Of a stretch of DNA of 64,000 bases, positions 14,718 through 25,160 are shown piece by piece. The notes under the pieces were generated by a model that searched no databases, was not told the origin of the DNA, and saw only the letters and a list, made by a program, of their open reading frames with translations. The number at the start of each line of letters is the position of its first letter. Positions within the stretch are counted from its first letter, which is position 1. Position numbers and translations under genes: made by a program. Source of the DNA: a virus (lineage: Duplodnaviria; Caudoviricetes); IMG/VR virus record IMGVR_UViG_3300021429_002418, positions 1,708 to 65,707 of that record. The stretch is one strand, 5' to 3'.

Positions 14718-14893
14718 TGCCCCAAGTGCCAGCTTTATTTCTACCTAAAAAGAAACCTGATACACAGGTAAAAAACATAAAAAAGAATCGTAAGAAACTT
14801 CCTACTGATTCGGATAAAAAGACTTCTGCATTATTCAAAGGGAGAAATGATGGTTACCAAAAGATCAACGGCGAAGTATACGGAACAACATGA
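14711..14893 (+). CDS. hypothetical basic protein
   Basis: 60 aa ORF overlapping the phoH start by 47 bp. Confidence 0.35.
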   Translation: MVMPQVPALFLPKKKPDTQVKNIKKNRKKLPTDSDKKTSALFKGRNDGYQKINGEVYGTT

Positions 14894-15608
14894 TGACGAT
14901 GCGAAAACTAGGCATCAACCAGTTACAAGTAATTCTTTAAAAATTAAACTGGATCATTTAAAAACCTTTGAACCACTAACCGAGAATCAAAGACTATTCT
15001 TTGAGATGTATAAAGGTGGTGCGTATTTTATGGGACTGTTTGGTAGTCCGGGTGTAGGTAAAACCTTCTTAGCATTGTACAAAGCTATTGAAGAAGTACT
15101 AGATAAAAATAACTCATTTAAACAGGTAGTGGTTGTACGCAGTCTGGTACAATTGCGTGATGTTGGATACTTGCCAGGTAACTTGGATGAAAAACAAGAA
15201 ATCTATGAGTTGCCATACAAAGAAATTTGTAATACACTATTCGGAAGACCTGATGCATGGGACAGATTGAAAGAACAGAGTTATGTGCGTTTCATTTCTA
15301 CCACTGCAATCCGTGGTATCTCCATCGATGATGCAATCATTCTTGTGGATGAAAACCAAAACTTAAATTGGTCTGAAGTCAATACAATCATTACACGGGT
15401 TGGGCATCGGTCAAAGATTATTTTCTCTGGTGACTTTAAACAGACAGACTTGATTAAGAGTAACAAAGACCAAACATCTTTCCATGATTTCCTTGAAGTG
15501 GCTCGTAAGATGCCATCGTTCCAAGAAATCTACTTTACACCAGATGACATTGTTCGAAGTAGTCTAGTGAAACAATGGATCGTGGCCTGTGAAGAACTTG
15601 GTTATTGA
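14847..15608 (+). CDS. phoH: PhoH-like ATPase
   Basis: GSPGVGKT, GYLPG, IRGISIDD, VDENQNL, TRVGHRSKIIFSGDFKQTDL, DIVRS. Confidence 0.92.
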   Translation: MMVTKRSTAKYTEQHDDDAKTRHQPVTSNSLKIKLDHLKTFEPLTENQRLFFEMYKGGAYFMGLFGSPGVGKTFLALYKAIEEVLDKNNSFKQVVVVRSLVQLRDVGYLPGNLDEKQEIYELPYKEICNTLFGRPDAWDRLKEQSYVRFISTTAIRGISIDDAIILVDENQNLNWSEVNTIITRVGHRSKIIFSGDFKQTDLIKSNKDQTSFHDFLEVARKMPSFQEIYFTPDDIVRSSLVKQWIVACEELGY

Positions 15609-15616
15609 TATAAATA
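15609..15616 (+). promoter_or_regulatory. T4-type late promoter box (TATAAATA) upstream of the radical SAM gene
   Basis: exact consensus in an intergenic gap. Confidence 0.7.
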
Positions 15617-15645
15617 TACAACTGTAATAAACTAACGGGAAAAAA

Positions 15646-17100
15646 ATGATTTTTGAAATCCAGGCCACAAAATTCGAAGATGGTGACACGAAGATGTTCA
15701 GTTATGATAACATGTCCAATGTATTGAAAGATGCTGATGGTAACATTTTTGAATATCCTGAAGATCAACGAACAGACAACTTCTTAAAACCATATAAGCC
15801 ATTTGATAAAAACCGACCACTGAAAAAAGCCAAGTTGATAAGTTGGTTGAAAATTCAAATGGGTTTGAGTTGTAACTATTCATGTGACTATTGCTCACAG
15901 AAGTTTGTTGAACGTCAACCTGAAACTTCCAAAAAAGATATCGATGTTTTTCTCGAAAAATTAGAAAACCTACATTTTGATGAAGATGTTGGACTAAAAA
16001 TTGAATTTTGGGGTGGCGAACCATTTGTTTATTGGAAAACAATGAAACCTTTGGCTGAAGCCATTGCAGAGAAATTTGATAGTTGGAAAACAAAGCCACA
16101 ATTTAGTGTCATCACAAATGGTTCAATTTTGACTGATGAAATTATTGATTGGTTGATGATGATGGACTTCTCTGTGTCTATATCACATGATGGTCCAGGA
16201 CAGTTTGTTCGTGGTCCTGATCCATTTGATGACCCAGAACAAAAAGAACGAATTCTTGGATTCTATAGAATGATGACAAGACTTGGAAAAAACATAAGCT
16301 TTAATTCCATGTTGAACGCTAAAAACCAAAGTAGAAAAGAAATTACTGATTGGTTTGTAAATTTAACAGGTGATAAGAATGTTAATTTAGGTGAAGGTTC
16401 TTTGGTTGATGCTTATGATGAAGATGGTATTTCAAATTCACTAATCACCAAACAGGACCATTTTAAATTTAGACAACGGTCATTTGGTGAATTGTACAGT
16501 GAAGGTCCAAATATTAGATTTATGGGCCAATTAGGTAAAGTCCAAGGATTAATTAATTCAATTTTAAACCACGATGAAGCAAAATATTTGGGACAAAAAT
16601 GTGGTATGGACGATGAACACACCATATCAGTTGACTTGCGCGGCAATGTTATGACATGCCAGAATGTGAGTTCATTGGAAATCTCCAAGAACGGTGAATC
16701 GCATCATGGCGGTACATTGGACGATTACTCAAATGTTGAATTGAAATCTGTCACACATTGGTCAAACCGAAAAGAATGTCCAGAGTGTCCAGTATTGCAT
16801 ATTTGCAAAGGTGCTTGTATGTTCTTGGATAAAAAGTTTTGGGACATTTCATGTGCTAATGCTTACTCAGACAATGTTGCACTATTTGCTGCTGCGTTTA
16901 CTATGGTGACAAATGGTTATATACCAACACTCATTAAAAGTGATACACTACCATTGGATAGACAAGATGTTTTTGGTACAATCTTCCAGCACGAAGAAGA
17001 AAAACAGAAAAAAATCATACCAATCAAGGTGGTTAACGAAATTATTGGTGTAGTCAATGAAATACCGGTGTATGGTAAATCACGATTAGAAACTTCATAA
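15646..17100 (+). CDS. radical SAM enzyme with C-terminal SPASM domain (peptide/protein maturase-like)
   Basis: CNYSCDYC (C76/C80/C83), FWGGEP, ITNGS, SISHDG; SPASM KCG...DLRGNVMTC and CPECPVLHICKGAC...C. Confidence 0.92.
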   Translation: MIFEIQATKFEDGDTKMFSYDNMSNVLKDADGNIFEYPEDQRTDNFLKPYKPFDKNRPLKKAKLISWLKIQMGLSCNYSCDYCSQKFVERQPETSKKDIDVFLEKLENLHFDEDVGLKIEFWGGEPFVYWKTMKPLAEAIAEKFDSWKTKPQFSVITNGSILTDEIIDWLMMMDFSVSISHDGPGQFVRGPDPFDDPEQKERILGFYRMMTRLGKNISFNSMLNAKNQSRKEITDWFVNLTGDKNVNLGEGSLVDAYDEDGISNSLITKQDHFKFRQRSFGELYSEGPNIRFMGQLGKVQGLINSILNHDEAKYLGQKCGMDDEHTISVDLRGNVMTCQNVSSLEISKNGESHHGGTLDDYSNVELKSVTHWSNRKECPECPVLHICKGACMFLDKKFWDISCANAYSDNVALFAAAFTMVTNGYIPTLIKSDTLPLDRQDVFGTIFQHEEEKQKKIIPIKVVNEIIGVVNEIPVYGKSRLETS

Positions 17101-17103
17101 ATA
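17096..17103 (+). promoter_or_regulatory. T4-type late promoter box (CATAAATA) upstream of the Asn-Cys protein
   Basis: same variant precedes gp48 (33423) and gp25 (39293). Confidence 0.65.
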
Positions 17104-17131
17104 ATAGAAACAACACTTTTAGAGTTAACAA

Positions 17132-18085
17132 ATGACAATAAAAAACTCAGGTTCATCATTAGGAGTTAGCGAAATCAACACGGAAATAGGCCGTGGTGCA
17201 GTAAATACCTCTTTAACTTTCCTCAACGGTTTTATGCTTCCAGCGCTGCGGCCGGCCGGGCCCGATGCGCCCGTAGCCACCAGCACAGCAAATGTCAATA
17301 AATTTTATGGTTTACAGTATTATCAAAAGAATAATGCTGGAAATTGTAACAATGCGAATGCCGGCAATTGTAACTGTAATAGCGGAAATGCGGCTTGCGG
17401 TCAATGTCAGAGTGCCGGTAGCCAAGCCCGGCAGTGCAATGCCACAAATAATTGTACAGCCATCAATTGTGCAAATTGTGATGCACAGAAATGGTTGCAA
17501 ACAGGTAATTGCAATGTCGGCGCAAATCCAGTATATAATTGCACCAGTAATCAAAATTGTTTTACCTTTAATTGTAATTGTTCAAAAATTATTTGTACAA
17601 AATTGTTTGATTTGGGTATGATGAAACAAAATATTTTTGAAGCCGATCAAGCATTTGGTGAACGTTTGATTAAAACTAATCCTGATATTTACAATGGATA
17701 TCGTGCATGGGCCGAAATTGTTGTTGACTGGATGGACGGCAAAGGTCCTAAAATGATGCCTTGGATGTCCGATGAAGACTTTGGTATAGCTGCTAAAAAA
17801 TGGTCAACAACATGGGCCTACGATATTGCAACACCATGGGCTGAAGAAATGGCTCACATTATGGGTGAGGATGAATCTGGCAGTCTGACGGGTAAAATGA
17901 TTATGGGTTTTGGTGTGCCAATTTGTAAGGTTGTCGGCGTCTGGCAGCGTTGGTTTGGGCCAAGTAAGAAAGAACCTGGTTTCATCAAAGGTGCAGGCCT
18001 TGTTATAATTTTTGTTATGTTTAAACTAGTTGCAGAACTTGGTCGTTTAATTGAAAGAATTATTCCAAAGAAAAAGGTGGCTTGA
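17132..18085 (+). CDS. Asn-Cys repeat protein; candidate substrate of the adjacent rSAM/SPASM enzyme
   Basis: 14 Cys in aa 72-150, 11 as NC and 2 as QC; N-terminus SG.SLG.SEINTEIG; separate C-terminal domain starting KIICTKL. Confidence 0.85.
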   Translation: MTIKNSGSSLGVSEINTEIGRGAVNTSLTFLNGFMLPALRPAGPDAPVATSTANVNKFYGLQYYQKNNAGNCNNANAGNCNCNSGNAACGQCQSAGSQARQCNATNNCTAINCANCDAQKWLQTGNCNVGANPVYNCTSNQNCFTFNCNCSKIICTKLFDLGMMKQNIFEADQAFGERLIKTNPDIYNGYRAWAEIVVDWMDGKGPKMMPWMSDEDFGIAAKKWSTTWAYDIATPWAEEMAHIMGEDESGSLTGKMIMGFGVPICKVVGVWQRWFGPSKKEPGFIKGAGLVIIFVMFKLVAELGRLIERIIPKKKVA

Positions 18086-18381
18086 TGGCAACATATACAA
18101 ATCAAAGACCAGTTAAAATAACAGCCGATGGCAATGATGAAAAATATTTTGGTGACCACGTAACACATTTTTTCAACACAACCAGTTACGAAATTATCAA
18201 TGCCCTTTCACAGGTTGACAAAGAAAGATTTTTTAAAATGTTGACTGACCATGAAAGTTTGATTCACAAGTTGTATGGTGAACCATCAACGAATTCTGTA
18301 CTTTTTTTACCGGCAAGTGCAAGAAAAAATATTAATAAAAAATTAATCAACGAATATAAAGTGTGGTTGGAGAAACAATGA
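18085..18381 (+). CDS. hypothetical protein, paralog A
   Basis: TGATG coupling; aligns by eye with 18378..18725. Confidence 0.7.
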   Translation: MATYTNQRPVKITADGNDEKYFGDHVTHFFNTTSYEIINALSQVDKERFFKMLTDHESLIHKLYGEPSTNSVLFLPASARKNINKKLINEYKVWLEKQ

Positions 18382-18725
18382 TAAACAGTTACACAACTAT
18401 GGAAACTTTTAAAGCATCTGACGGCAATATAATTATATATGATTTTAATTGTGTACATATTTTTTTAAAGAAAACTTTTGAAGAAAATTTCTTAAAGCTT
18501 TCAGATGAAGAAAAAAAAGAAACTTTTTATATTAGCCAAGAATATGCTGATTTACTAAAAAAATTGTTGGATGAGCCTCTTGGTGAAGATCGTGGAGACA
18601 TAAAAGAAGAATATGAATATTTTATTTCTACACCTAGAACTGACGTCATCGGTGGATCTGTATATGATATAAAAGCGGAAAGATTGAGACTACAAAAAGA
18701 ATGGTTGGAATCGCAAAATAACTAA
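18378..18725 (+). CDS. hypothetical protein, paralog B
   Basis: ATGA coupling; H.F..T..E...LS..K..F...L..KL..EP...WLE.Q pattern shared with paralog A. Confidence 0.7.
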   Translation: MINSYTTMETFKASDGNIIIYDFNCVHIFLKKTFEENFLKLSDEEKKETFYISQEYADLLKKLLDEPLGEDRGDIKEEYEYFISTPRTDVIGGSVYDIKAERLRLQKEWLESQNN

Positions 18726-18740
18726 TATCGGTTTTATATT

Positions 18741-19436
18741 ATGACAACAAAAGAAGATAGAGATAGATATCACTGGTATCAAAATGCACAGAATATGTTT
18801 TGGCAAAGTCCAATATGGGAAGAACAAACTCGCTTTGATGAGCAATTCAACGAAACTTTATTGGACGAAATCTACGGTATAGGTAAAGATATCGTATTGG
18901 GTAAAGACAAAGACCCAAACAATAGTATATGGGACTACAGTAGACCCAACTTAGATATACTAAAACAAGAAATTATAGATATTGTAACCAAGAAGATTGT
19001 ACAGAACATTCCACAATTGAGAATGTTAAACATTCGTGGTTGCGAACATTTCATGGGTTGGATTAATGTACGAGAACCAAATGAACGTTTGGAAGTACAT
19101 GGACACACCGAATCTGCAATTGCTGCAACATACTACATCAAAGCTAAGGAAGGGTGTGGAGACTTGGTGGCATTTGATTCCTCACATTCTATTGATTGGT
19201 TGAATAATAGGTTGAGTGGTAGTCCATTCATGCGTGAACGTAGATTTAAACCTGTCGAAGGTCGGTTAATTTTTTTCCCATCTTACGTTTTACATGGTGT
19301 TGATGAAAACAAATCGGATGACCTACGCATTTCACTATCAACTGACCTGAGAAAAGTGGTAGAAAAGGATGCATCAAATACTGTTATTCTGAAGAGCTGG
19401 GCCGGCCGTATGGCCAAAATTAAAGATTGGAAGTAA
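18741..19436 (+). CDS. Fe(II)/2-oxoglutarate-dependent oxygenase (TIGR02466-like)
   Basis: HGH..SAIAATYY, PVEGRLIFFPSYVLHGV, RISLS. Confidence 0.85.
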   Translation: MTTKEDRDRYHWYQNAQNMFWQSPIWEEQTRFDEQFNETLLDEIYGIGKDIVLGKDKDPNNSIWDYSRPNLDILKQEIIDIVTKKIVQNIPQLRMLNIRGCEHFMGWINVREPNERLEVHGHTESAIAATYYIKAKEGCGDLVAFDSSHSIDWLNNRLSGSPFMRERRFKPVEGRLIFFPSYVLHGVDENKSDDLRISLSTDLRKVVEKDASNTVILKSWAGRMAKIKDWK

Positions 19437-19966
19437 TGTTTATCAAACTGGAAAATACATTTGAAAAACCACTTTACGCAATTACTGATCCGCTAAAATC
19501 ATTTCAAGTCGAGGGTAAAGGCATTGACTATAAAAAGATATGGTCACCAGAAGCGGAAAAGATATATGGCATTTTACCAAAAAGGTACTGGCCAGATTTC
19601 CACTTGACAGTTATGACAATTGATTGTATAATCCCACCACATACAGACACAGAAATCATAACCTCAATTAATTTTTATCTCCAGACAGAAGGTTGCACAA
19701 CAACATTTTATAAGCCAAAGGTTGAGAAACCAAGAACGGTGCAAGTTAAAAATCAAACAAATGGTCATATATATTTTGAGGAAGATTTAGTTGAAGTTGA
19801 TAGTTTTGTGGCCAAAGATTTTGAAATTTGGTTACTTGATGTAAGTCGAATACATGGCGTTAAGGGTGAATTCAATTTGCGTAAAGCCATCACCTTAGGA
19901 ACTTTTGTTCATGGGTATGAGAACGTAATTCGGATGTTAAAGGAAACCAAAAATGTCATTTGTTAA
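19436..19966 (+). CDS. Fe(II)/2OG oxygenase-like cupin, paralog 1
   Basis: PPHTD...SINFY...LLDVSRIHGV...RKAITL (HxD...H...R); TAATG coupling. Confidence 0.75.
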   Translation: MFIKLENTFEKPLYAITDPLKSFQVEGKGIDYKKIWSPEAEKIYGILPKRYWPDFHLTVMTIDCIIPPHTDTEIITSINFYLQTEGCTTTFYKPKVEKPRTVQVKNQTNGHIYFEEDLVEVDSFVAKDFEIWLLDVSRIHGVKGEFNLRKAITLGTFVHGYENVIRMLKETKNVIC

Positions 19967-20621
19967 ATTAAAGAACCTTTATGAGTACATGCCTCACACA
20001 GTTATACCACGAGGACGAGCAGATTCGTTTGCCGGTAAATATGGTTTAGGTGTTAGACACAATACCATTTGGACACCAGAACCTGAATTGGAAAAATTGT
20101 ATAAGGTTATTCCGGAACGTTATCATAAAGATTTTCAGGTAACAAGAATGTCGATCAACAGTTTGTTGTTACCACATGTTGACAATGATTTTATAACCAC
20201 AATTAATTTTTATTATGAACCACAAAATTATAAAACTAACTTCTTTAAACCAAAAGAAGGAGTAAGTTCTTGGAAAACAGAAGAAGATAGGCACACAGAT
20301 GTTACAACTGAACGTATGGAAGAAAAAGATATAGATATAGAGGCACTAAAAACCCGTGTCAAAGAATTTGTATCAGAAAAACAAAATATGCCGACATGTG
20401 AAGATATCACATATGTTGACGCCGTTTATACATTTGATGATGTATATGAGATTGGTTGTTTTGTAGCTCAACCTAACGAAGCATATATGTTGGATGTTAG
20501 AGTGGCTCACAATGTTGAACCACTAGGTGAAGTTAAAATCAGAAAGGCTTTTTCTCTGAGAACTAGACATTATGATTACGGTCAAGTTTATGATATGTTA
20601 AAAGAAACTGGAAATTTATAA
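19953..20621 (+). CDS. Fe(II)/2OG oxygenase-like cupin, paralog 2
   Basis: LPHVD...TINFY...MLDVRVAHNV...RKAFSL; colinear with paralog 1. Confidence 0.75.
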   Translation: MSFVKLKNLYEYMPHTVIPRGRADSFAGKYGLGVRHNTIWTPEPELEKLYKVIPERYHKDFQVTRMSINSLLLPHVDNDFITTINFYYEPQNYKTNFFKPKEGVSSWKTEEDRHTDVTTERMEEKDIDIEALKTRVKEFVSEKQNMPTCEDITYVDAVYTFDDVYEIGCFVAQPNEAYMLDVRVAHNVEPLGEVKIRKAFSLRTRHYDYGQVYDMLKETGNL

Positions 20622-20631
20622 AGGACAAAAA

Positions 20632-21426
20632 ATGTTTTTTGAGAAATTAAACTACACGGTAAATATTGAAAAATTAAAAAACGAAGTTCGTGAAAGTGTT
20701 TTTACTTTGGGTGACCAAGTCATACAGGGTGAAGAATATGAAACACCAAAATATAATGGTTTTGGTGGATGGAGTTTATTGTGTAGAGAGGCCACATGGA
20801 CAGGTGGTTGGGAAGCAATTCAACTTGAACATGGACAATCACTGGAAAATTTTCTTCCAACAGAAGAATTGATATACAAAGCATATAAACACTTTAATAT
20901 TTCTCATGGATTGGAACATGATAAGCCAACTGAAGCTTATGTTGGTGAAATTAAAAAAGTACTGGATGACATACGCGAGATGGGGTTTCATCCTACAAGA
21001 GCCAGAGTGACTTGTTTAAAAGCACATTCAAAAAGTTTGGTACATAAAGATGCCAATGAAACTGAATATATGGCACGAATACACATACCGTTATGGACAA
21101 ACAAGAAATGTGTACATATTTGTCAAGGCAAGAATTTACATATGCCAGCCGATGGTGGTGTGTGGATTCTTTGGACAAATCAGTGGCATCAAATAAGAAA
21201 TGATTCCGATGAAGATAGATATCATATTATAATGGATGCATACGACACCAAAAAAATAACTAAATTTTTCAATTATGATGGTGAATTTGAACAATTAGAA
21301 AATTACGTAAGAGGTTATAGAGAAAAAATTGATTCTTCAGACTTAACTGAAGAGGACATTGATTTTTTTGAAGCCATTAGACAAAAATATGTCACCAAAA
21401 AAGTTAGAGACAACGAACTTATTTAA
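20632..21426 (+). CDS. aspartyl/asparaginyl beta-hydroxylase-like oxygenase
   Basis: RARVTCL...VHKD...RIHIPLWTN...HMPADG...WHQIRNDSDEDRYHII. Confidence 0.8.
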   Translation: MFFEKLNYTVNIEKLKNEVRESVFTLGDQVIQGEEYETPKYNGFGGWSLLCREATWTGGWEAIQLEHGQSLENFLPTEELIYKAYKHFNISHGLEHDKPTEAYVGEIKKVLDDIREMGFHPTRARVTCLKAHSKSLVHKDANETEYMARIHIPLWTNKKCVHICQGKNLHMPADGGVWILWTNQWHQIRNDSDEDRYHIIMDAYDTKKITKFFNYDGEFEQLENYVRGYREKIDSSDLTEEDIDFFEAIRQKYVTKKVRDNELI

Positions 21427-21428
21427 TT

Positions 21429-22946
21429 ATGATTGATACACACGGTATTATTTTTACCGGCATGGAAAGAACTAGAACAATTAGTCGACCAGCTGGTGCA
21501 GCAAGATTAAGAACAGTTTTAGACCAACATGGTTACAACATTGAGGTTGTTGACTATTTTGGTAATTTCACCGAAGAAGAAATAGAAACAGTTTGTGCTA
21601 GGTTTATTGGACCAAAAACTCTGTTTGTTGGTATCAGTATCACATTCATTTATGCATTCGATAAAATTAATTTTTTGTTTAATCATATCAGAGAAAAATA
21701 TCCTCATGTAAAAACATTAATTGGCGGAAATGAAACACCAATTGATGGTGTCGACCTATTGAAGGTTGATAGAGTATTCTGGGGTTATGCTGAGGAAGCG
21801 GTACTACACTATATTAAATTTTTAACCAAAAAGCGTTTGGATGATTTGAAGTGGGTTCCATATAGAGGTACATTGGCTATTAATGCCGAAATGATTTATA
21901 AAAACGATGATAGTGATTTGTCTATTAAATGGTTAGAAAGTGACCTGATTAAAAATAACTTTTTACCAATTGAAATTAGTCGCGGTTGCATTTTTAGATG
22001 TAGATTCTGTGCATTTCCGTTGTTGGGTAAAAAGAAAAATGACTATATTCGTCATGTTGATAATTTGTCAGCCGAACTAAGAAGAAATTATGAGATGTTT
22101 GGTGTCAATAACTATTGGTTCAATGATGACACCTTCAATGACAATGTTGTCAAACTAGAGTATGTTGCCGAAGCTATTGCAAAAAGTGGTGTTAAAATTA
22201 CATACACTGCATTTTTAAGAGCAGATTTGATTGAGAGATTTCCGGAAACTATTCCCATGTTGGCAGATACTGGATTGGTTGCTGCAACTTTTGGTTTGGA
22301 AACATTTCACCCCGAAGCAAAGAAAGCAATTGGAAAAGGTTTAGATAATGAAAGACAATTTGAAGCAATTCGAAAACTTAAAAAGTACAAACCAACTTAC
22401 ACATATACAGGTATGATTTGTGGTTTACCAGGTGAACCATTATCGAGCGTATACAATAGTCAAAAGATGTTAGTGGAACAAAATTTTGAAGTATTTGATA
22501 ATTGGGATTGGTGGCCTTTGGTAATCAGAAAAAATTCAGTAAGTCGGCTGAGTGAATTTGAAAAAGAATACGGCAAATGGGGTTACACTGAAATGATATC
22601 AGGTGAATATAACATATCTAAATATGATGACGATACAAGATACAACAATGATGATAGCAACTTGATGATGTGGAAAAATAAATATTTAAATTATTTTAGT
22701 GCCAGAACAATTGCGACCCTTTTGAATAAAGAGACTGAACAATTGCGGATCAAGGCCGGCAAATCAATCTATGGAAATGCTGACAAAGGTGTTAGTATCA
22801 ACCATGATGTGTATGAGTTGGTTGGTTTGGGAGTTGATGTGAAAGATATAATTGATGGAACATTTGATAAGTCTGCTTTAAATAGAAAAATTGAAGAAGC
22901 CGATCAAACCATCCTTGAATACAAAAAACTGAAGTTAGGATTATAA
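21429..22946 (+). CDS. radical SAM enzyme with B12-binding-like N-terminus (class B methyltransferase-like)
   Basis: IEISRGCIFRCRFC, DDTFN, GLETFHPE, ICGLPGE; N-terminal PAGAARL...GY.IEVVD...VGIS...IGG. Confidence 0.8.
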   Translation: MIDTHGIIFTGMERTRTISRPAGAARLRTVLDQHGYNIEVVDYFGNFTEEEIETVCARFIGPKTLFVGISITFIYAFDKINFLFNHIREKYPHVKTLIGGNETPIDGVDLLKVDRVFWGYAEEAVLHYIKFLTKKRLDDLKWVPYRGTLAINAEMIYKNDDSDLSIKWLESDLIKNNFLPIEISRGCIFRCRFCAFPLLGKKKNDYIRHVDNLSAELRRNYEMFGVNNYWFNDDTFNDNVVKLEYVAEAIAKSGVKITYTAFLRADLIERFPETIPMLADTGLVAATFGLETFHPEAKKAIGKGLDNERQFEAIRKLKKYKPTYTYTGMICGLPGEPLSSVYNSQKMLVEQNFEVFDNWDWWPLVIRKNSVSRLSEFEKEYGKWGYTEMISGEYNISKYDDDTRYNNDDSNLMMWKNKYLNYFSARTIATLLNKETEQLRIKAGKSIYGNADKGVSINHDVYELVGLGVDVKDIIDGTFDKSALNRKIEEADQTILEYKKLKLGL

Positions 22947-23605
22947 TGTTTGTTTATTGCCCACCAAAAGAGATTCCAAAAATTGAGTCTCAAACTTTTC
23001 CTGACGGGAAAAGATACTATGTTACACCAGATGGTAAAAAGTTGCCGTCAGTCACAACCGTGGTGGGTGCTCAAAAGAAACAGGCCATCATGGAATGGCG
23101 TAGGCGTGTTGGTGAAGAAGTTGCTAACAAGATATCTAAACAAGCGACCTCCCGTGGTACCAATGTACACACCTTGTGTGAACATTATCTGAACAATGAA
23201 CCTAAACCACCAGGTGTAGTTATGCCTGACGCTAAGGAAATGTTCATTTCCCTCAAACCACTACTAGATAAAATTAATAACATACATTATCAAGAGGTTG
23301 GATTGTGGTCCACTCAATTAGGTTTAGCTGGTCGAGTAGATTGTATTGGTGAATATGAAGGTGTTTTGTCGGTAATTGACTTTAAGACTTCCAAAAAGTT
23401 GAAGGACATTAAAGATATCCAAGATTACTTTTGGCAAACAACAGCATATGCATTGATGTATGAAGAGTTGGTCGGTCAACCTATTGATGATATTGTTATC
23501 ATTATGGCCGTGCAAGATTCCGGACCTGTGGTATTTAAACAAAAGACACAAGATCACATTGAGGGGCTTGTGAGAGCTATTGACTACTACCACAAAAATA
23601 GTTAA
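22946..23605 (+). CDS. PD-(D/E)XK (RecB/Cas4-like) exonuclease of T4-like phages
   Basis: LPSVTTV, RGTNVH, AGRVDCIGEY, IDFKTS, QTTAYALM. Confidence 0.88.
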   Translation: MFVYCPPKEIPKIESQTFPDGKRYYVTPDGKKLPSVTTVVGAQKKQAIMEWRRRVGEEVANKISKQATSRGTNVHTLCEHYLNNEPKPPGVVMPDAKEMFISLKPLLDKINNIHYQEVGLWSTQLGLAGRVDCIGEYEGVLSVIDFKTSKKLKDIKDIQDYFWQTTAYALMYEELVGQPIDDIVIIMAVQDSGPVVFKQKTQDHIEGLVRAIDYYHKNS

Positions 23606-23608
23606 AAC

Positions 23609-24205
23609 ATGACACAAAGTATTTGGCGTAAAGAAGAAATTATAATTGCGGATGAGTTGCAAGAATTAATTCCAAAACTACGACAAGAGTTTTTGAATTA
23701 TCACAAAGATTTCTATACGGAGTTTCGTGGTGGTGTGTCATACGCTGATTCAAATGAGAATGCAACAATCACGGAAGAAGAGCGTAATGTTTGGAAAGTT
23801 GAAGGTCTACGTTATGTATTACCGGAAAAAAATGTGGAACATAACATGTTCCTTGATCCAAAATTACAAATGATTTTACCTACTGCGGCCGCACTAACCA
23901 AAAAGTATTTTAAATACTGTGGTTGTAGTGGTTACAGCATATTGGATGCGGGTGGTGTCATTAAGACTCACACCGATATTGAAAATAGGGATAGAAGAAC
24001 CGTCAGAATACATATACCGTTAATTATACCAGAAGGTGACACCTTTTTGCAAGTAAATGTTGTACGGTGTGATTGGTCAAACATATTTGCGTTTGACAAT
24101 GAAGAACCACATAGCGCATACAATAACACAGGTGAACGGCGATTAATTTATATCATAGATATAGCTAGATCATTTTTAGGAATTCCAGCAGGTAAGAGAC
24201 ATTAA
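23609..24205 (+). CDS. aspartyl/asparaginyl beta-hydroxylase-like oxygenase
   Basis: YSILDAGGVIKTHTD, RIHIPLIIPEG, FDNEEPHSAYN...RLIYIID. Confidence 0.85.
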   Translation: MTQSIWRKEEIIIADELQELIPKLRQEFLNYHKDFYTEFRGGVSYADSNENATITEEERNVWKVEGLRYVLPEKNVEHNMFLDPKLQMILPTAAALTKKYFKYCGCSGYSILDAGGVIKTHTDIENRDRRTVRIHIPLIIPEGDTFLQVNVVRCDWSNIFAFDNEEPHSAYNNTGERRLIYIIDIARSFLGIPAGKRH

Positions 24206-24671: not shown

Positions 24672-25160
24672 ATGAAGTTTTCATCAACTTTATTAATTGT
24701 TTTAGCAACAATGTGTTTACCACTATTTGCACAACAACAAAAAATTACTATTGAACAACAAGTCGGCGATAACATTAACAAACAAATAATGTGTATTGCA
24801 AAAAACATTTATTATGAGGCTGCATCAGAATCACATGAAGGTAAATTGGCTGTTGCACAAGTAACAATCAACCGAGCAAACAGCAAAAAATATCCGTCAG
24901 ATTTTTGCGGTGTTGTATATCAGAAAACAGGTTCAACCTGTCAATTCTCATGGACATGCGAGAAGGTTAATCCCATCAAGAACCCTTATGCTTGGGAAGA
25001 ATCACTCTATATTGCCAAACGAGCACTTACCGAAAATGTATTGCACCGAGAGCTTGCCAAAAGTCAAGCAATGTTCTACCATGCAACCTATGTTAATCCA
25101 GGTTGGTCTCTTAAAGTAGTTAAGACGATTGGTAACCATATATTTTATAAGAAAGCTTAA
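24672..25160 (+). CDS. SleB-like cell wall hydrolase (Hydrolase_2)
   Basis: CIAKNIYYEA...GKLAVAQVTINR...CGVVYQ...CQFSW...FYHA...IGNHIFY; signal peptide. Confidence 0.9.
   Translation: MKFSSTLLIVLATMCLPLFAQQQKITIEQQVGDNINKQIMCIAKNIYYEAASESHEGKLAVAQVTINRANSKKYPSDFCGVVYQKTGSTCQFSWTCEKVNPIKNPYAWEESLYIAKRALTENVLHRELAKSQAMFYHATYVNPGWSLKVVKTIGNHIFYKKA

Follow-up and report, generated by a model that had tools for sequence, protein, structure and literature searches.

A phage cassette pairing a radical SAM/SPASM enzyme with an Asn-Cys protein: a candidate modification system for a fibre-type part

The radical SAM (rSAM)/SPASM enzyme encoded in the window (the whole stretch of 64,000 nucleotides analysed, from the genome of an uncultured T4-like phage) and its relatives are tightly linked, in both directions, to genes for Asn-Cys cores and tails, including those of tail fibres. 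Viruses with this cassette probably modify a fibre-type part chemically. The reading to which we give slightly better than an even chance is that the cassette serves to modify a fibre-type protein of the phage, yielding a fibre-tip or adhesin-like virion part cross-linked by enzymes, probably through Cys thioethers. In the published literature no paper was found which describes this phage modification of a fibre-type part.

The cassette genes are all on the + strand and lie directly 3' of phoH. Their surroundings in the window are genes of DNA metabolism (phoH, exonuclease, gp59, gp32) and not tail genes. The features are:

14847-15608, + strand: phoH (phrog_170)
15609..15616, + strand: T4 late-promoter-like box TATAAATA, read in the sequence, 30 nt 5' of the rSAM start
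15646..17100, + strand: rSAM/SPASM enzyme, 484 aa (Pfam Radical_SAM, NCBIfam SPASM)
17096..17103, + strand: late-promoter-like box CATAAATA, 28 nt 5' of the Asn-Cys gene
17132-18085, + strand: Asn-Cys protein, 317 aa, whole gene
17132..17326, + strand: its N-terminal module, aa 1-65, conserved in alignments
17327..17596, + strand: its Asn-Cys core, aa 66-155, with conserved Cys columns, ending at the NCNCSKIIC junction
17597..18085, + strand: its helical C-terminal domain, closing with a hydrophobic helix, aa 156-317 (AlphaFold2)
18082..18381, + strand: small acidic protein of 99 aa, without a family
18363..18725, + strand: small protein of 120 aa, weakly paralogous to the 99-aa protein
18741..19436, + strand: 2OG-Fe(II) oxygenase of the Oxy_5 type, 231 aa (Pfam PF13759, phrog_81)
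19427..19966, + strand: oxygenase-type protein of 179 aa, without a sequence family, assigned by conserved residues and fold
19953..20621, + strand: 222-aa paralog of the 179-aa oxygenase, 39% identity
20632..21426, + strand: Asp/Asn beta-hydroxylase-like oxygenase, 264 aa (Pfam PF05118)
21429..22946, + strand: B12-binding-type radical SAM, 505 aa (Radical_SAM)
22946-23605, + strand: exonuclease (phrog_298), an ordinary neighbour
23609..24205, + strand: second Asp/Asn beta-hydroxylase-like oxygenase, 198 aa (Pfam PF05118)

The initial annotation had described this block as holding an rSAM/SPASM enzyme, an Asn-Cys protein, five 2OG-oxygenase-type genes and a B12-type rSAM, and both content and coordinates hold. 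It had also called the two small genes paralogs; the relationship is detectable, but weak (26% identity, pairwise BLASTP E 0.008). Late-promoter-like boxes (xATAAATA) similar to TATAAATA are present in the closest relatives too, and 29 of 56 distinct related loci have a [TCA]ATAAATA box no more than 60 nt before their Asn-Cys gene, despite diverged surroundings. The identification of the TATAAATA box as a late promoter is suggestive only, the 8-mer not being rare in a 63% A+T genome.

The linkage was followed from both sides in IMG/VR. From the enzyme side, 145 stretches encoding rSAM relatives were matched and 80 loci kept (62-96% identity), in 76 of which an Asn-Cys gene adjoins the rSAM gene. 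Of the other four, one (L084) has a 129-aa form just upstream, two (L027 and L046) are cut off by the contig edge and one (L082) starts inside the rSAM gene, and among the enzyme-side loci there is no informative rSAM locus without an Asn-Cys gene. From the substrate side, 77 loci were found with the core motif, and in 76 of them the rSAM gene adjoins the core, the exception ending about 150 nt past the core gene. The initial annotation had raised the point whether rSAM homologs occur mostly without the Asn-Cys gene; these neighbourhoods strongly uphold the pairing. Two classes can be told apart among the 75 distinct cores: in 44 long forms the rSAM gene precedes the core, and in 31 short, Hint-fused or S74-like forms the core precedes the rSAM gene, most of the gaps being below about 60 nt. 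Judged by these neighbourhoods, the rSAM enzyme and the Asn-Cys core appear to constitute the minimal system.

The position of the cassette between phoH and replication genes would also suit auxiliary metabolic or nucleic acid-modifying enzymes, acting on DNA, nucleotides or host proteins, with the Asn-Cys protein as a mere neighbour. T4-like cyanophages commonly carry 2OG oxygenase genes of unexplained role. Radical SAM enzymes are reported to participate in phage thymidine hypermodification (PMC8989533). A nucleotide or DNA target of the rSAM enzyme is hard to reconcile with the two-way pairing, which extends over 27-96% identity and over differing phage types and gene orders, and we consider this explanation very improbable for the cassette, while it may be true for some of the accessory oxygenases.

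More distant rSAM relatives (27-48% identity) were found in 38 loci; Achromobacter phage JWF and Ralstonia phage RSP15 are among the carriers, as are many bacterial loci of a prophage-like kind. These rSAM genes sit 3' of fibre-type proteins ending in N-C-x-C. A tail, defined as a same-strand ORF within 6 kb upstream ending in [ND]CxC or carrying the motif just before a Hint domain, is present in 23 of the 38 loci versus 4 of 2518 background ORFs; in the other 15 loci this simple rule detects no N-C-x-C tail. In JWF the tail fibre gp028 carries NCNCDCNCNCSC followed by a Hint domain, and the C-terminal end of the RSP15 side tail fibre ORF048 is NTNCQCGN. The core itself is found as a stand-alone protein of about 130 aa and as fusions to Peptidase_S74 (tail-fibre chaperone) or self-cleaving Hint domains, and short cores lie directly 3' of S74-bearing fibre genes. 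One neighbouring protein gives a weak match to Pfam gp38 (E 0.0075, under cut-off). Such an arrangement resembles Peptidase_S74 chaperones and the T-even gp38 adhesin, both in the small gene directly 3' of the distal fibre gene and in the tip maturation domains, some Asn-Cys cores carrying S74 and others Hint in the same place. To our knowledge, tail-fibre tip maturation of the S74/gp38 type involves no radical SAM or oxygenase step.

The initial annotation had allowed for either a virion appendage or a released effector, made by a RiPP-like system. In the latter case a bacteriocin, signal or anti-defence factor, released or intracellular, would be cut from its precursor and not be part of the virion; a leader-like N-terminus followed by a Cys-rich core and a maturase, stand-alone forms of about 130 aa, and a cassette outside the structural genes of the window would fit this. 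We regard such a product as decidedly unlikely. No protease, exporter or immunity gene was seen in the cassette or the related loci inspected. The N-terminal motif (MTLPxSGxIxVSxINxEIG...FLNG...FYG) also heads other phage proteins, a local HMM of this module matching the N-termini of three non-Asn-Cys phage ORFs, and it is thus a general phage N-terminal module and no private leader. The system is then not a RiPP system in the strict sense, and the fusions to S74 and Hint domains, the positions next to and after fibre genes, the full-length tail fibres with Asn-Cys tails and the late-promoter-like boxes favour the appendage.

The Cys residues of the core are at positions 72, 80, 82, 89, 92, 102, 108, 113, 116, 127, 137, 143, 148 and 150, confirming the earlier count of 14 Cys in 79 residues with 13 preceded by Asn or Gln (Asn eleven times, Gln twice, Ala once); two further Cys lie outside this set, at 155 and 265. 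Among 80 family members the residue before a core Cys is Asn in 74% of cases versus an Asn background of 23% in the core, so that the Asn-Cys pattern is conserved and not due to chance. Conservation comprises the Cys columns, the NCxNCDxQxWLQ and CTYNC blocks and the invariant NCNCSKIIC junction. The core could not be modelled (pLDDT under 50).

The rSAM/SPASM enzyme contains CNYSCDYC and CPECPVLHICKGAC, matches phrog_1802, and scores above cut-off for Pfam Radical_SAM (39.6 bits, cut-off 29.5) and the NCBIfam SPASM domain TIGR04085 (32.7 bits, cut-off 27). Across 35 homologs ten cluster Cys are unchanged, three of cluster 1 and seven of SPASM. The top named NCBIfam models are the PapB, geopeptide, CcpM and QhpD maturases, all far under their own cut-offs: PapB (NF047865) gives 77 bits against a cut-off of 340 (E 1.1e-21, nearly the whole profile aligned) and QhpD 59.9 bits against 453 (E 1.7e-16). 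Further Cys-thioether maturase models matching below cut-off are SCIFF and TIGR04463 (48.7 bits against 525, E 4.5e-13). The nearest solved chain is 8vpo, followed by CteB (5wgg). As the enzyme is below every equivalog cut-off, its reaction is not readable from family membership.

The core could also be a structural element that binds metal or is rich in disulfides; the CxC motifs of three chains might, for instance, hold metal ions. The task of the rSAM enzyme could then be sactionine formation, epimerisation, conversion of Cys to formylglycine or cluster insertion. At the T4 gp37 tip HxH motifs hold metal ions, and the metal sites of gp37 and gp12 offer a comparison for CxC. CxC spacing is the most conserved feature of the core (for a given Cys, a second one stands at +2 or -2 in 31-33% of cases), CC pairs are avoided, a trimer is suggested by the S74 fusions, the JWF enzyme had been given the annotation of anaerobic sulfatase maturase, and for the window's enzyme the match to the anSME model has E 1.3e-10. 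We hold this explanation to be possible, if unlikely: thioether maturase models outscore anSME (1e-21 versus 1e-10), the anSME target motif C/S-x-P/A-x-R is absent, and metal binding alone leaves the 74% Asn at -1 unexplained.

For the thioether-linked fibre part, the mechanism which we infer is that the rSAM/SPASM enzyme would work on the 317-aa protein encoded next to it, at the Asn-Cys core, most likely abstracting a hydrogen from an Asn or Asp side-chain carbon and joining this carbon to a Cys sulfur. The links would be thioethers to carbons other than the alpha carbon, as in ranthipeptide and NxxC-type systems, and the end product a fibre-tip or adhesin-like part of the virion, compact and stapled by covalent bonds.

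Among known systems, the PapB/CteB ranthipeptide and SCIFF maturases share with the phage enzyme a full seven-Cys SPASM domain and an adjoining Cys-rich substrate, PapB being its best NCBIfam model and CteB its second-best solved match. They differ in several respects. The phage enzyme falls far short of the PapB cut-off, and a PqqD-type recognition element was not detected. In place of a short peptide, the substrate would be a protein of 130-317 aa or a tail-fibre end, Asn would take the place of Asp or Glu as acceptor, and the cassette is without protease or exporter. In streptococcal NxxcB/NxxcA a thioether is formed from Cys to the Asn beta-carbon within NxxC motifs. The phage proteins have the same Asn/Cys register, since N-C-x-C, the minimal motif of all tails, includes a single NxxC unit, with overlapping units in runs of NCNC; this likeness is a lead from the motif only, and host, substrate size and biological setting differ (system reviewed in PMC9389541). 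That a whole Cys-rich protein can be cross-linked by a SPASM radical SAM enzyme was described for CrpC/CrpA of Methanococcus voltae (PMC13692751, 2026). CrpC/CrpA and QhpD/QhpC are alike in the installation of Cys thioethers in whole Cys-rich proteins, not peptides, but are cellular, with unrelated substrates and no oxygenase set, and the TIGR04463 and QhpD scores are under the cut-offs.

The C-terminal domain of the 317-aa protein is all helical in the AlphaFold2 model (residues about 150-312, pLDDT 78-93). The same domain terminates many phage proteins of 150-1859 aa (glycine-rich, DUF4815 or Ig-domain), where it comes after a run of poly-Gly and a junction of the [KS]IIC type, in most cases KIIC. 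In 46 loci with the domain on other proteins no rSAM or oxygenase was found within 7 kb, in contrast to 26 of 26 loci with Asn-Cys cores having the rSAM gene. This helical membrane-anchor domain is an independent module, and the enzymes track the core instead. It would serve for assembly or anchoring, in the place taken by the self-cleaving Hint or S74 chaperone domains in other family members, and it may be removed. A C-terminal predicted membrane helix is unusual for a virion part unless removed.

The oxygenases, including the two Asp/Asn hydroxylase-like ones, and the B12 rSAM would add lineage-specific hydroxyl and perhaps methyl groups. The 231-aa protein matches 2OG-FeII_Oxy_5 with 60.4 bits, and the 264-aa and 198-aa proteins match Asp_Arg_Hydrox with 38.1 (cut-off 22.6) and 49 bits (above cut-off). 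The 179-aa and 222-aa proteins match no family and keep invariant H72, D74, H143 and R152; the predicted 179-aa fold is a double-stranded beta-helix (pLDDT 92), with the ribosomal oxygenases NO66, YcfD and MINA53 as best Foldseek matches (E 2e-4 to 6e-4, TM 0.43-0.46). The B12 rSAM scores 71.9 bits for Radical_SAM and 28.5 bits for B12-binding, under the cut-off of 32.1, its best NCBIfam model being the PhpK family (94.5 bits, cut-off 600). The two Asp_Arg_Hydrox genes next to an Asn- and Cys-rich candidate target recall AspH acting on Cys-rich EGF domains; in distinction, the EGF hydroxylation consensus C-x-[DN]-x4-[FY]-x-C-x-C was not found by eye in the phage core.

Both the 179-aa oxygenase and the 264-aa AspH-like oxygenase are present in 24 of 26 long-form loci. 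Short-form loci do not have the 264-aa gene, and AspH-like and 179-aa oxygenases are mostly missing from them; in this comparison of loci the 179-aa oxygenase and the first AspH-like gene appear to travel only with the long form, and these oxygenases may serve another purpose. The stop of the 179-aa gene overlaps the start of the next gene in many relatives. Most long-form loci have an Oxy_5-type gene, as do some short-form loci more weakly, and in distant prophage-like loci the interval from the fibre genes with Asn-Cys tails to the rSAM gene contains Oxy_5 and Oxy_3 genes. As a separate copy, the 222-aa paralog is mainly in the closest subclade, the second AspH-like gene, whose position relative to the exonuclease varies, is only there, and the B12 rSAM is in this subclade, with distant B12-rSAM genes (27-33% identity) in 11 short-form loci. 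Relatives of the 99-aa gene were detected by tblastn in 29 distinct loci, the small gene coming after many long-form Asn-Cys genes, and the 120-aa gene is found in the closest relatives only. Hydroxylation of Asn would target the very carbon needed for an Asn thioether, putting the two reactions in competition.

The phage of the window is T4-like, and its source record in IMG/VR is 65.7 kb long with a completeness estimate of 37%; no nucleotide-level relatives of the window were found among cultured phages. The cassette, that is the enzyme genes located after phoH around the gene of a 317-aa Asn-Cys protein, is flanked upstream by genes for an endonuclease, a DNA-binding protein and PhoH, and downstream by genes for an exonuclease, a SleB-like endolysin, the gp59 helicase loader, a 5'-deoxyribonucleotidase and gp32. 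The interval from phoH to the exonuclease contains ten co-oriented genes, and one further cassette gene follows the exonuclease. Gene listing, family scores and motifs confirmed the gene content described in the initial annotation. Features of the window are:

15646-17100, plus strand, radical SAM/SPASM enzyme (rSAM)
17132-18085, plus strand, Asn-Cys protein
17597-18085, plus strand, C-terminal helical domain of the Asn-Cys protein
21429-22946, plus strand, B12-type rSAM
24672-25160, SleB-like cell-wall hydrolase (phrog_938, endolysin), sited among replication genes and with a hydrophobic signal-like segment at its N-terminus

The rSAM carries the SAM-cluster motif CxxxCxxC (C76, C80 and C83, CNYSCDYC; invariant in 35 homologs) and scores 39.6 bits with Pfam PF04055, for which the cut-off is 29.5. 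The seven-Cys SPASM motif CX9-15GX4C ... CX2CX5CX3C ... C is present as C319-x13-G-x4-C338, C378-x2-C381-x5-C387-x3-C391 and C403, all invariant, and TIGR04085 (SPASM) scores 32.7 (cut-off 27); the PqqD Pfam has no match on the 75 residues N-terminal to the cluster motif. The closest named families are PapB, CcpM, QhpD, SCIFF and CrpC, which are Cys-thioether maturases for Cys-rich substrates, every score being under the respective family cut-off. With the PapB-family ranthipeptide maturase model NF047865 the enzyme reaches 77.4 bits, below the equivalog cut-off of 340; as judged by this profile it is not a PapB-family member, and its action would be PapB-like at best. Among solved structures, CteB is the second-best match.

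The initial annotation had presented the Asn-Cys protein as the substrate of the rSAM, a proposal on which both the frequency of rSAM homologs without the Asn-Cys gene and the conservation of this neighbourhood in IMG/VR bear. From 145 IMG/VR stretches encoding rSAM relatives, 80 loci (62-96% identity) were kept, and the Asn-Cys gene adjoins the rSAM in 76 of them. Of the remainder, one (L084) carries, immediately 5' of the rSAM, a version of 129 aa, two (L027 and L046) stop at a contig edge and one (L082) starts within the rSAM, so that there is no informative locus on the enzyme side without an Asn-Cys partner. On the substrate side, a motif taken from stand-alone cores (the Cys-rich Asn-Cys part of the protein) gave 77 further loci, some of which share contigs with the first set; the rSAM is present in 76/77, and the sole locus without it ends about 150 nt past the core gene. 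The pairing is thus conserved in both directions. Gene order among 75 distinct cores follows the form of the protein, the rSAM preceding the core in 44/44 long forms (core plus C-terminal helical domain) and the core preceding the rSAM in 31/31 short, Hint-fused or S74-like forms, with gaps mostly below about 60 nt. Late-promoter-like boxes are found upstream of both the rSAM gene and the Asn-Cys gene, in the latter case within 60 nt 5' of the gene in 29 of 56 distinct loci; as a motif only, they are compatible with late expression.

With a profile built from 30 full-length Asn-Cys members, 1590 hits were obtained among 1.84 billion representative proteins, and these fall into two independent modules. 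The first, an N-terminal motif plus core, is found stand-alone as proteins of about 125-135 aa, with tails such as NCNCACDCGGRC or CACACW, in fusions with Hint domains, with Peptidase_S74 tail-fibre chaperone domains or with another unnamed domain, and fused to the helical domain, which is the form seen in the window. An ESM Atlas search returned unnamed viral clusters only, and as a word-index query the first 66 residues of the Asn-Cys protein found close relatives only. A local HMM of the N-terminal motif matches the N-termini of three non-Asn-Cys phage ORFs, and the motif MTxPxSGxISLSxVNTELG is located on other phage proteins at:

L029:5371-6417
L013:8009-9100
L208:15861-16445

Of the phage proteins headed by the motif, one has BNR-like repeats and one a weak gp38-adhesin match. 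By its distribution the motif looks like a general phage N-terminal module, not a private RiPP leader.

In alignments of the core the Cys columns are fixed and the conserved blocks are GNCNNGNC, CGNIQC, NCxNCDxQxWLQ, NCNCACTYNC and SYNCNC. The residue before a core Cys is Asn in 74%, and Cys-Cys pairs are avoided. One short form (L096:6001-6483) has a long repetitive (CPVDCAC)n-like tail (…CNCPVDCACNCPVDCACDCPVDCACDCNCDCGG), and the Cys ladder is thus expandable. The core may also, with lower probability, be read as a metal or disulfide element, the rSAM then performing chemistry of another kind; the avoidance of Cys-Cys pairs speaks for this rival, the kinship of the rSAM to Cys-thioether maturases against it.

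The second module, the helical domain, was modelled with confidence as a bundle of helices, the terminal one hydrophobic. It terminates many phage proteins of 150-1859 aa, whose N-terminal parts are glycine-rich or have DUF4815, Ig-like or Hint domains, and in L254-L300 giant glycine-rich proteins of up to about 1870 aa; the junction lies mostly after a poly-Gly run and carries a [KS]IIC-type motif, KIIC in most, and in some proteins the domain directly follows a Hint domain (…VHNKKIIC). Where the helical domain ends such other proteins, an rSAM or oxygenase within 7 kb was found in 0/46 loci, whereas in the same search the rSAM was present in 26/26 loci with the domain after an Asn-Cys core, 24 of which also have the AspH-like and 179-aa oxygenases. 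The enzymes therefore track the core, not the helical domain, an observation to be set against the rival explanation that the cassette enzymes are unrelated auxiliary enzymes. Since Hint or S74 domains occupy the place of the helical domain in other members, the C-terminal part is suggested to be a removable assembly module, and the helical domain might serve as an anchor, pro-domain or cleavage site. Foldseek gave no hit for it below E 0.001, and the best VIA-align matches, the NEL E3-ligase domains of SspH1 and SlrP (Z 6.4), are within noise for helical bundles.

Several lines of genomic context connect the Asn-Cys proteins to tail fibres. Short cores lie directly 3' of S74-bearing fibre genes in three loci (L084, L100 and L136), and in other relatives the gene preceding the rSAM has a fibre-like end. 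Among cultured phages a clear rSAM relative (42-46% identity) is limited to the Achromobacter phage JWF (gp030) and the Ralstonia phage RSP15 (ORF045), where it sits in the tail modules; the tail fibre gp028 of JWF has NCNCDCNCNCSC and then a Hint domain, and the C-terminal end of the RSP15 side tail fibre ORF048 is NTNCQCGN. An alternating-Cys run elsewhere in the RSP15 genome was discarded because it falls in a frame that an Ala-rich structural gene does not use for coding, the real tail being the NCQC end of ORF048. A bacterial genome scan for rSAM relatives yielded 61 loci, including Burkholderia paludis, Limnohabitans, Polaromonas, Castellaniella, Magnetospirillum and many Rhodobacteraceae and Rhodospirillaceae. 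Out of a distant set of 38 loci, made up of JWF, RSP15 and 36 scan loci, 23 have, on the same strand and within 6 kb upstream of the rSAM, an ORF with an [ND]CxC end or with [ND]CxC before a Hint domain (e.g. FNCNCNCRC, NCNCNCACCGCC), against a background of 4/2518 other ORFs. Together, the S74 and Hint fusions, the adjoining fibre genes and the tails on annotated tail fibres are context evidence for a putative fibre or adhesin nature of the Asn-Cys proteins. The less likely reading of the product as a released effector has this context against it, and in its favour the occurrence of the core as a stand-alone protein.

Between the Asn-Cys-tailed gene and the rSAM the distant loci have one to three 2OG oxygenases and a protein of about 255-300 aa outside the named families; the oxygenase and rSAM combination is accordingly old and widespread. 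A protein of about 235-306 aa with no family match and a GFKYFS-like end, usually sited between these two genes, may be a further conserved partner of the rSAM, which it accompanies in distant modules at:

L173:4957-5790
L207:6396-7163
L001:6314-7129
L084:11481-12401 (here just after the rSAM)
L122:6993-7700

In the window three cassette oxygenase genes exceed the Pfam cut-offs for the 2OG-Fe(II) class. The family of the 179-aa oxygenase and its 222-aa paralog has invariant H72, D74, H143 and R152; a sequence profile of the 179-aa proteins brought up no convincing relative among solved structures, and the predicted fold is closest to NO66, MINA53 and YcfD. On these grounds the cassette oxygenases fit the 2OG-Fe(II) class, which is marked by an HxD...H iron triad and a 2OG-binding Arg on a double-stranded beta-helix. 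The B12-type rSAM scores 71.9 bits for Radical_SAM and 28.5 bits for B12-binding, below the 32.1 cut-off, its best NCBIfam model being the PhpK family (94.5 vs 600). The particular set of oxygenases and B12 rSAM in the window is specific to its lineage. Two members, the 179-aa oxygenase and the first AspH-like gene, accompany the long form. The Oxy_5-type gene is shared by the majority of long-form loci and, with weaker matches, by some of the short-form ones. The B12 rSAM, the 222-aa paralog, a 120-aa gene and the second AspH-like gene are wholly or largely confined to the closest subclade; B12 rSAM genes of distant kinship are present in 11 short-form loci. The 179-aa gene and its paralog overlap by 14 nt (19953-19966), and in many relatives the stop of the former overlaps the AspH-like start (…GNL* / MFYE…), which suggests translational coupling. 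An apparent AspH-like/B12 rSAM fusion in L015-L017 (764-aa ORF) is an artefact, with an in-frame TAA then ATG. The 99-aa small protein showed no similarity to the small gene after a cyanophage protein with the same helical domain.

The "RiPP-like" system of the initial annotation stands in so far as the rSAM has an Asn-Cys partner, not as a strict RiPP pathway with short precursor and private leader: neither the cassette nor the related loci inspected showed a recognisable protease or transporter, the substrates are proteins of 125-500 aa, and the N-terminal motif is also on other ORFs. The minimal common motif N-C-x-C holds one NxxC unit, which is reportedly the register of streptococcal NxxcB; this is a motif lead only. 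Enzymes of this type are able to cross-link whole proteins, as described for CrpC/CrpA (PMC13692751). Given the maturase kinship, the CteB match, this precedent and the NxxC unit, we favour a mechanism in which the rSAM would install Cys-to-Asn or Cys-to-Asp side-chain thioethers, these would staple together a compact fibre-tip or adhesin-like element, probably a trimer, and the oxygenases and B12 rSAM would act as tailoring enzymes. Tentatively, and with confidence a little short of even, we extend this to T4-like, siphovirus-like and Ackermannviridae phages and numerous prophages, which would staple their host-contacting fibre tips via radical-SAM-installed Asn-Cys thioethers, plus hydroxylation, methylation and, in some lineages, halogenation.

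Phage host range is decided by tail-fibre tips, whose maturation is not known to involve more than folding chaperones and self-cleavage. With a radical-SAM enzyme and oxygenases dedicated to Asn-Cys fibre ends, virion assembly would gain an enzymatic, covalent step, and RiPP-type chemistry would reach from peptides to viral structural proteins. If true, fibre stability or receptor binding would have a new determinant, and a virus particle would, as far as our literature search showed, be described for the first time as carrying a post-translational modification made by a radical enzyme. The search found no description of a phage rSAM/Asn-Cys system; the radical SAM gene of cyanophage S-SCSM2R is called an antibiotic-synthesis gene only, with a Cys-rich partner or fibre link unmentioned (PMC12801897). 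Aquatic T4-like phages have many 2OG oxygenases that are unassigned, and the system could account for part of them.

Tryptophan halogenase genes (Pfam PF04820) are located a few genes 3' of the rSAM in short-form loci:

L084:12409-13620, 101 bits
L090:9683-11074, 307 bits

The Asn-Cys protein has Trp as its C-terminal residue in L090 and in several more short-form loci (e.g. CACACW, CACLW).
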